Positions 9,198-12,082 of a stretch of DNA of 22,071 nt are shown here, piece by piece. The stretch is from NCBI GenBank assembly GCA_043813875.1, contig JBDRKP010000083.1, positions 1-22,071 of the forward strand, read 5' to 3'. Origin of the DNA: an archaeon. GTDB taxonomy: Archaea; EX4484-52; B79-G9. Under the pieces are notes generated by a model that was given only the letters and a program-made list of their open reading frames with translations, ran no database searches and was not told the origin of the DNA. Position 1 is the stretch's first letter. Each line of letters starts with the position of its first letter. The position numbers and the translations under genes were made by a program.

Positions 9198-9233
9198 GTT
9201 GTTTTCACCACATTTTTGGTGGGCCTGACGGGA

Positions 9234-9266
9234 TTTTCTCGTACGTTCATGGTTTTGAACGTTCGC
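9234..9266 (-). other. tRNA intron 3 (33 nt, T-loop position 59/60)
   Basis: Central helix TTCA/AGAA (one A-A mismatch), bulges AA^G and AA^T, intron hairpin ACGTTCA/TGAACGT. Removal restores the T-loop TTCAAAT. Confidence 0.85.
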
Positions 9267-9288
9267 TTTGAACCCGCGACACCCGGGT

Positions 9289-9323
9289 ATCTTCTACAGA
9301 TTCCGGTGCATTAACCGTCTGGT
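9289..9323 (-). other. tRNA intron 2 (35 nt, canonical position 37/38), relaxed BHB
   Basis: Central helix CTTT/GAAG, bulges TA^A and AT^A, closed by the anticodon stem; internal CAGA/TCTG and CGGT/ACCG helices. Confidence 0.8.
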
Positions 9324-9330
9324 TAAAAGC

Positions 9331-9352
9331 TTCACCCTCGTCGATTAAGAGC
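9331..9352 (-). other. tRNA intron 1 (22 nt, position 30/31) with a strict BHB motif; contains the CTT anticodon cassette
   Basis: AGAG-CACC-GG^G-CTC pairs with GAG-GGTG-AA^G-CTTT, giving a 4-bp central helix, two 3-nt bulges and both flanking helices. Confidence 0.85.
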
Positions 9353-9430
9353 CCGGTGCTCTAGCCAGACTGAGCTACAGGCCCACTCCTTGTGTGTTTG
9401 AAAATTGAGATTACTCTATTCTCAGGATAA

Positions 9431-9440
9431 TTTTATAAAT
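9431..9440 (-). promoter_or_regulatory. TATA box for tRNA-Lys, and probably the rpoH operon
   Basis: Minus strand ATTTATAAAA about 50 nt upstream of tRNA position 1. A second ATTTATAAAC lies at 9661-9670. Confidence 0.5.
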
Positions 9441-12006: not shown

Positions 12007-12009
12007 GAG

Positions 12010-12082
12010 AGCCCGGGGCGAGATTTGAACACGCGACCTCTGCCTTACCAAGGCAACGCTCTACCAGCTGAGCCACCCGGGC
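12010..12082 (-). tRNA. tRNA-Thr(GGT), intronless, CCA not encoded
   Basis: Acceptor stem GCCCGGG/CCCGGGC, D stem GCTC/GAGC, anticodon stem TTGCC/GGCAG with loop TT-GGT-AA, T-loop TTCAAAT, discriminator T. One T-T mismatch in the T stem. Confidence 0.95.

Follow-up and report, generated by a model that had tools for sequence, protein, structure and literature searches.

The locus described here raises the question of how one transfer RNA gene that carries two anticodon loops is spliced, and whether sequences inside its introns choose between them. In the window, by which we mean the whole stretch of 22,071 nucleotides of archaeal DNA that was analysed, positions 9384-9217 of the minus strand are an archaeal (DPANN) tRNA-Lys gene with an encoded CCA (9219-9217), and the segment 9301-9340 lies between and after two anticodon loops, CUCUUAA (9351-9345) and CUUUUAA (9329-9323), inside the intron region of this gene. 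The original prediction held that a hairpin and a repeated word in this segment could switch the precursor between two conformers, one favouring tRNA-Lys(UUU) and one favouring tRNA-Lys(CUU). On balance, if with some reserve, we favour a composite tRNA-Lys gene in which two anticodon cassettes lie between shared 5' and 3' parts and the precursor has two exclusive folds. That both isoacceptors, tRNA-Lys(UUU) and tRNA-Lys(CUU), would be produced from it in cis we hold a little more firmly, as probable from the sequences compared below.

The arrangement of the gene is simple. The two loops lie downstream of the 5' anticodon-stem strand CCGGG, and a single 3' strand, CCCGG (9287-9283), preceded by GAAG-AUA, follows them, which leaves one 3' splice half for both; the CUUUUAA loop has a G directly before it and CCAGAC directly after it. 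The Rfam tRNA model (RF00005) matches the gene with 42.8 bits, takes CUU to be the anticodon and places inserts of 59 nt in the anticodon loop and 34 nt in the T loop, while ARAGORN did not find the composite gene, also when introns were allowed. The coordinates of its parts are collected in the table.

Table. Parts of the composite tRNA-Lys gene and the tRNA-splicing endonuclease gene of the same genome (positions are those of the window unless a contig is named).
Feature	Position	Strand	Basis or remark
Composite tRNA-Lys gene: acceptor, D arm, two anticodon loops, T arm with intron, CCA	9217..9384	-	Rfam and homologues
Shared 5' exon, tRNA positions 1-30	9353..9384	-	bounded by the 5' cut site of the strict BHB; D arm invariant
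Intron 1, 22 nt, position 30/31, removed in the UUU route	9331..9352	-	strict BHB
CUU loop CUCUUAA inside intron 1	9351-9345, anticodon 9349-9347	-	sequence
CACC, 5' strand of the central helix of the intron-1 BHB; partner GGUG 9336-9333	9355..9358	-	paired 23/23
Bulges of the intron-1 BHB	GGG 9354-9352, AAG 9332-9330	-	
Outer helix of the intron-1 BHB	AGAG 9362-9359 with CUUU 9329-9326	-	
D-loop GUCUGG; partner CCAGAC 9322-9317	9365..9370	-	free ensemble, MFE, alignment
UUU cassette: G31 and loop CUUUUAA, anticodon 9327-9325	9323..9330	-	all 29 composite loci
Intron 2, 35 nt, canonical 37/38, removed in the UUU route	9289..9323	-	junction ambiguous by one A
Central helix of intron 2	CUUU with GAAG 9294-9291		
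Long intron, 57 nt, canonical 37/38	9289..9345	-	removal would give tRNA-Lys(CUU)
Shared 3' half of the long intron	GAAG 9294-9291, bulge AUA 9290-9288	-	
Hairpin UUAACC-AGAC-GGUUAA (9326-9321, 9320-9317, 9316-9311)	9311..9326	-	sequence and folding, -4.1 kcal/mol
GCACCGG, copy of exon 9359-9353	9303..9309	-	sequence
T-loop intron, 33 nt, position 59/60	9234..9266	-	BHB-like: central 3/4, outer 5 bp, inner 2 bp
tRNA-splicing endonuclease gene	G000:C67:38221-38742 (L113:1474-2187)	-	

Three further observations concern the surroundings and the T arm. A TATA-like TTTATAAAA lies at 9431-9439 on the minus strand, about 50 nt upstream of the 5' end of the mature tRNA-Lys, which would be compatible with a leader of about 20-25 nt. 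At 12009-12082, also on the minus strand and 2.6 kb from the Lys gene, lies a tRNA-Thr(GGU) gene of the ordinary kind, with no intron. The T-loop intron is absent in g3, f2, f3, f6 and f8, and differs greatly in length and sequence in g1, g2, f5 and f7.

An unbiased BHB scan of the precursor placed at its top CACC/GGUG with the bulges GGG and AAG, the outer helix AGAG/CUUU and the inner helix CUC/GAG, and this motif around intron 1 was the only one in the precursor to combine a central helix of 4/4 pairs with flanks of 4 and 3 bp. Intron 1 (9352-9331) thus has the archaeal hBHBh' form, two 3-nt bulges with a 4-bp helix between them, flanked by an inner helix of 3 bp and by outer helices of 4 bp and 6 bp. 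A cut behind the second nucleotide of the bulge, which we take to be the cut position within a BHB bulge and which is consistent with a 30/31 junction, joins position 30 to G31 and removes the 22-nt intron together with the CUU loop; excision restores the 5-bp stem CCGGG followed by the 7-nt loop CUUUUAA. The outer helix is extended by CCAGAC, the exact complement of the D-loop word GUCUGG. This D-loop:CCAGAC helix is part of the MFE of the whole precursor (P ~0.65) and is paired in 98.6% of alignment cells across homologues, and among the non-composite Lys(UUU) introns of a metagenome scan none begins with CCAGAC and two begin with CCAG.

The structure built from these helices, here called Fold U, requires both an open D stem and an open anticodon stem. 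Its 17 pairs are standard pairs in 98.0% of 391 cells (23 homologues), compared to 31-56% when the partners are slid, and 3/500 shuffles reach the observed value. The central helix CACC/GGUG is paired in 23/23 homologues and shows one compensatory change, A-U to G-C, in 2/23 (L026 and L027). Most Fold U pairs never vary, and the covariation consists of one pair in one genus, so that the covariation evidence for Fold U is thin; its register specificity is strong.

Fold C is the cloverleaf, in which the anticodon stem stacks on loop positions 32-35 paired with the shared GAAG, with 3-nt bulges at 37/38. Among the 23 distinct cores represented by the 30 unique genes of the composite set, the central helix with GAAG is complete (4/4) for the UUU loop in 21, and 3/4 for the CUU loop, with C34 unpaired, in all 23. 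At the CUU site an inner helix of at least 3 bp directly follows the 3-nt bulge in 11/23 cores, compared to 0-4/23 in slid registers, and the flank after the UUU loop pairs with the flank before GAAG in 2/23 cores only (inner-helix counts were obtained with anchor-based scripts; MAFFT misplaces the inner-helix columns of family f6). An adjacent inner helix at the UUU site is found only in family f6, which has lost one nucleotide on both sides, so that the register of the CUU site is kept, and which shows the same central mismatch in its obligatory intron 2, indicating that the mismatch is tolerated there. In the genome studied here the adjacent inner helix is 1 bp at the CUU site and 0 bp at the UUU site, and neither canonical intron passes a relaxed BHB scan. 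As neither canonical site is strict, a relaxed motif must be cut in either route. The stems of the cloverleaf are invariant across homologues and so are uninformative for covariation.

We infer that both routes are used, the precursor partitioning between two mutually exclusive folds. In Fold U the D arm and the anticodon stem would be open, and D-loop:CCAGAC, AGAG:CUUU and CACC:GGUG would build the strict 30/31 BHB, the cleavage of which would remove the CUU loop, after which the relaxed canonical intron would be taken out to give tRNA-Lys(UUU). In Fold C the precursor would be a cloverleaf, the CUU loop would pair with the shared GAAG, and the 57-nt intron with the UUU cassette in it would be removed to give tRNA-Lys(CUU). 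In Fold C the inner stem of the long intron would consist of the hairpin and the CACC copy; in Fold U the same letters would find partners in the 3' anticodon-stem strand, which is free there, and in exon positions 8-12. As far as can be read from the alignment, the conserved determinants of this competition appear to be CACC/GGUG, AGAG/CUUU, the D-loop GUCUGG:CCAGAC pairing and the anticodon stem. Constrained ensembles of the full precursor give -62.7 kcal/mol for Fold U and -58.7 kcal/mol for Fold C, putting Fold U ahead by about 4, and for the D-to-anticodon part a nearest-neighbour model favours Fold U in all lineages, the margin ranging from 0.3 to 9.3 kcal/mol and being smallest (0.3-1.6 kcal/mol) in this genus.

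The arrangement is not peculiar to the window. A similarity search covering 60 relatives found the composite gene in 28 of the 31 genomes of the order outside family f4, which with the window's own makes 29 genomes, and the three genomes that lack it are 57-71% complete; in family f4 it was found in 0/10 genomes. In f4, cmscan confirmed for genomes G018 and G025 that Lys(UUU), without an intron, and Lys(CUU) are encoded by two different genes, six more genomes have both words at Lys-like matches, and locus L030 is a plain CUU gene, not a composite one. All 29 composite loci (L001-L029, from 8 families) contain both loops, with every part contiguous within 168 nt and CUCUUAA invariant. They keep GGG(U/C)GA(A/G)GCUUUUA and, except in family f6, CCAGAC; GCUUUUA is invariant, the last letter of the UUU loop is A in 19/23 rows and G in 4/23, and the D arm does not vary among the homologues. 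The spacers between these conserved blocks vary in length (4-31 nt and 16-39 nt) and also in sequence. A scan of species genomes with the two-loop pattern returned 28 stretches, mostly in DPANN-type MAGs (Nanohalarchaeota, Aenigmatarchaeota, Nanobdellati), and a metagenome scan anchored on the 5' exon only added five new composite variants. No decayed composite was seen among 52 unique sequences, those of the 5'-exon-anchored metagenome scan included. Since its parts lie together within 168 nt in 29/29 loci, we do not class the composite gene as a split or tri-split tRNA.

Some members of this set deserve separate mention. Two composite genes, L055 and L066, come from MAGs labelled Methanosarcinales and Bathyarchaeota and do not differ from the g1 and g2 types in the first 140 nt, the part that was compared; their contigs have probably been mis-binned. 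In this genus, genome G001 has a second composite gene of g2 type (L050/L054, on G001:C121), which suggests a mixed bin. The members of family f8 (L028, L029, L088, L104) have an extra hairpin of 8-10 bp after the CUU loop inside intron 1, the sequence of which differs between genomes yet stays paired, a case of covariation within the spacer.

The elements on which the original prediction was built are present in segment 9301-9340. The 6-bp hairpin is perfect, and its 5' arm covers U35, U36 and A37 together with the splice junction, so it does bury the 3' part of the UUU anticodon and the 5' splice site of intron 2 as described; the intron-2 word GCACCGG is likewise an exact copy of the exon word. 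Both are only mildly unusual against chance: a perfect hairpin of at least 6 bp occurs in 184/5000 dinucleotide shuffles of the 57-nt intron (P=0.037), and a word of at least 7 nt in common with the exons in 351/5000 (P=0.070). The MFE of the isolated 57-nt intron, -11.6 kcal/mol, consists of GGUG/CACC and the hairpin and matches the fold as it had been drawn, and its stability is unremarkable (z=-0.73; 40/200 shuffles fold at least equally well). Hairpin and copy are identical in all 8 genomes of the genus, one pair weaker and uncompensated in L009 and L090/L096, and absent in other families, which gives a range of this genus, one sister family and one metagenome contig. The ten pairs of the predicted fold are formed in 50.3% of 195 cells (23 homologues), compared to 26-48% when slid, and 44/500 shuffles match this value, so that the fold does not outperform its controls; the hairpin helix alone is paired in 40.9% of cells. 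The expectation of a conserved element that covaries in homologues thus failed, as it is limited to the genus and its near neighbours and shows no covariation.

Folding of the whole precursor gives a more differentiated picture. The hairpin is not negligible in the free ensemble (P ~0.33), where it competes with D-loop:CCAGAC. The proposed capture of GGUG by the CACC of intron 2 appears when the cloverleaf and the CUU helix are enforced, the long intron then having GGUG/CACC around the hairpin as its best interior, but in the free ensemble this pairing has a P of only 0.008 and the copy pairs with the 3' anticodon-stem strand CCGG (P 0.38-0.65), thereby helping the UUU fold. In the model, forbidding the GGUUAA arm to pair has a cost of 6.7 kcal/mol in Fold C and 2.6 kcal/mol in Fold U, and for CACCGG the corresponding costs are 5.8 and 7.8 kcal/mol. 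Silencing both costs the two folds alike, 9.9 for Fold C and 10.2 kcal/mol for Fold U, so no net bias of the route (net ~0) is predicted from the pair of elements that had been thought to set it. Nor does the hairpin seem to be a serious trap, as once intron 1 is removed it is modelled to be 4 kcal/mol worse than the splice-competent fold. The modelling thus points to a hairpin and copy that would be genus-specific intron filling, stabilising whichever fold forms, and not a conserved switch. What survives of the two conformers is that two exclusive architectures do exist in silico, but the letters that decide between them lie elsewhere in the precursor.

The cleavable motif that had been drawn within this segment fared less well. 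GGGU (9337-9334) and ACCG (9307-9304) are each followed by GAA, as claimed, but the motif they form (9339-9329 with 9309-9299) has a central helix of 3/4 with a G-G mismatch and flanks of 2 bp each, and 56 motifs meet the same description in an unbiased scan of the 168-nt precursor, which makes it a chance-level look-alike. It is absent outside the genus, L009 and L090, and cleavage there would leave 27 intron nucleotides in the product. With a weak central helix and weak flanks, no conservation and a product that is not a tRNA, we rejected it as an archaeal BHB intron.

A looser relation between GGUG and intron 2 extends beyond the genus. Inside Fold C, GGUG is captured by intron 2 with P of at least 0.7 in 11/23 cores, with differing intron-2 words, and the complementarity between the GGUG segment and the intron-2 interior, measured against shuffles, reaches p <=0.1 in 12/23 of these related cores and p >=0.3 in 8/23, so that as sequence evidence it is suggestive only. 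The UUU cassette is complementary to intron 2 with p <=0.05 in 4/23 cores. A looser anti-BHB element, general across lineages and closer to the idea behind the original prediction, is conceivable in these models; the plain reading of the GGUG/intron-2 pairing is that the long intron closes on itself.

How many products the gene yields depends on how these features are weighed. The gene may make tRNA-Lys(UUU) only, as a three-intron gene (30/31, 37/38 and 59/60) in which the CUU loop simply caps the intron-1 hairpin and the intron-2 hairpin and GCACCGG are neutral, a reading that we consider rather unlikely. The strict BHB and its covariation serve the UUU route alone, the shared 3' half suits the UUU loop and is mismatched to the CUU loop in every core, Fold U is favoured in every model, and the composite-bearing MAG G028 also has a stand-alone Lys(CUU) gene, all of which speak for it. 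However, an inner helix needs just CUC, whereas the whole of CUCUUAA is invariant in 29/29 loci of 8 families beside a spacer that varies; the flanks of the CUU site are complementary in register in 11/23 cores and, if formed, would themselves make a cleavable BHB; and no other Lys(CUU) is found in 28/29 composite genomes, whereas f4 keeps two genes. The extra gene of G028, for its part, sits on a short contig and is missing from a well-covered congener, as described below. It is because of the invariant CUCUUAA beside its varying spacer and the in-register inner helix of the CUU site, and because the composite and two-gene arrangements are complementary in distribution and AAG makes up 45% of Lys codons (622 long ORFs), that we take both products to be likely. 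A UUU tRNA alone might read AAG by wobble, and this counts against two products.

That the hairpin and the GCACCGG decoy are a dedicated switch, with GAA/GAA cleavage excising the UUU cassette and driving CUU production, now seems very improbable. In its favour, the isolated intron has the predicted fold as its MFE, the modelled cloverleaf precursor contains it as its interior, the hairpin is formed in about a third of the free ensemble (P ~0.33), its arm alone favours Fold C by ~4 kcal/mol, and the Fold U advantage is smallest in this genus (0.3-1.6 kcal/mol). Against this, the fold is neither conserved nor covarying, L009 and L090 losing a pair uncompensated, the decoy pairs with the 3' exon and not with GGUG in the free ensemble, the modelled net effect of both elements is nil, and the GAA/GAA motif is one of 56, the use of which would leave those 27 intron nucleotides behind. 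It is more improbable still that a single 57-nt canonical intron is removed to give tRNA-Lys(CUU) alone, with the UUU cassette as a relic: the Rfam tRNA model does read the gene as CUU, but the strict conserved 30/31 BHB, its compensatory change and the invariant GCUUUUA and CCAGAC would be left unexplained. Within the composite-gene reading that we prefer, cis alternative splicing in which the fold would be chosen probably during transcription and in which lineage-specific intron-2 words (the hairpin and CACC copy here, CCCUCC and CUUCC elsewhere) would tune the CUU:UUU ratio is an idea that we hold to be doubtful.

Searches for other lysine tRNA genes bear on these alternatives. No second Lys gene was found in this genome by blastn-short with the exons, by ARAGORN with introns or by RF00005, and a pattern match at C27:6665 was discarded as a candidate, being outside the RF00005 matches and reading as coding by eye. 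Among extra Lys-like matches in composite genomes, a tRNA-Lys was found in 0/15 loci and in 0/17 extra matches in 5 genomes. Among seven further Lys-like loci, five are other tRNAs, L118 has no tRNA match and L115 is the exception that is a Lys gene; L115 apart, the extra matches are non-tRNA or Arg and Ile tRNAs. L115 (G028:C147:650-950, minus strand) is a stand-alone Lys(CUU) gene with a canonical intron and a T-loop insert, in a MAG that also has the composite gene. Its central helix, CUCU/AGAG, is perfect and gives a picture of what a dedicated CUU intron looks like. It lies on a contig of 1045 nt and is missing in the 92%-complete congener G016, and may be either a binning stray or a true second gene. 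A stand-alone Lys(CUU) was not seen in the other 28/29 composite genomes. A second synonymous anticodon loop was not found in 12 other intron-bearing tRNA genes inspected by eye.

The tRNA set of the genome of the window (G000, 91.5% complete) comprises only 25 RF00005 matches and about 31 ARAGORN genes, and genes for Asp, Asn, His, Pro, Trp, Tyr, Glu(UUC) and Gln(UUG) were not found; more heavily disrupted tRNA genes are likely to be present in G000. At G000:C72:9263-9381 on the minus strand ARAGORN reports a Ser(tga) with an intron, the loop of which reads by eye as C-U-UAC-A-U and would be Val(UAC). The one tRNA-splicing endonuclease gene detected in G000 is an ORF of 237 aa that has a single N-terminal domain and a single catalytic domain; a second endonuclease unit was not found in the genome. 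In the catalytic domain, 85 profile positions are matched over 94 residues, so that it may carry an inserted loop.

To our knowledge, synonymous tRNAs made from shared pieces have so far been reported only where the pieces come from split or tri-split genes and are joined in trans. The comparisons that follow refer to parts of the papers cited. The tri-split tRNA-Gly of Caldivirga maquilingensis yields synonymous isoacceptors from constitutive 5' and 3' parts and alternative anticodon-loop pieces joined at BHB motifs (Fujishima 2009, as described in PMC4390854); the lysine gene resembles it in having constitutive parts common to synonymous anticodons and a BHB at the junction, the two products being in our case inferred, and differs in that both cassettes lie in one 168-nt gene, where two exclusive folds would make the choice that separate transcripts joined in trans make in Caldivirga. 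One constitutive half also serves two synonymous anticodons in Nanoarchaeum tRNA-Glu(CUC/UUC), with one shared 3' half, and in Caldivirga tRNA-Ala, with one shared 5' half (PMC4390854), but there the halves are separate genes that are trans-spliced. [quoted passage not shown] The tRNA family, the junction and the canonical hBHBh' are the same as here; however, those tRNAs are assembled in trans from two genes and give CUU, whereas here the junction is that of a cis intron, the removal of which discards CUU and selects UUU. Archaeal tRNA genes with multiple introns can contain several BHB introns, including at non-canonical positions such as 59/60 (PMC4090602), and unlike the genes described in that part of the source an intron here carries a second intact, conserved and synonymous anticodon loop. 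A limited full-text literature search found no description of cis alternative splicing of an archaeal pre-tRNA or of a tRNA gene with two anticodon loops.

The hairpin matters less in this context than the composite gene, being a feature at the level of the genus for which the models predict no net effect. Because the tRNA finders either miss the gene (ARAGORN) or call it CUU only (Rfam), the lysine tRNA inventories of these genomes are wrong. If our reading is true, this would be the first tRNA precursor to be spliced alternatively by a protein endonuclease, and the gene would be a simple system in which the ratio of two decoders is set by RNA folding alone. Isoacceptors made from shared pieces would then have a cis version as well, conserved across an order of small-genome archaea.
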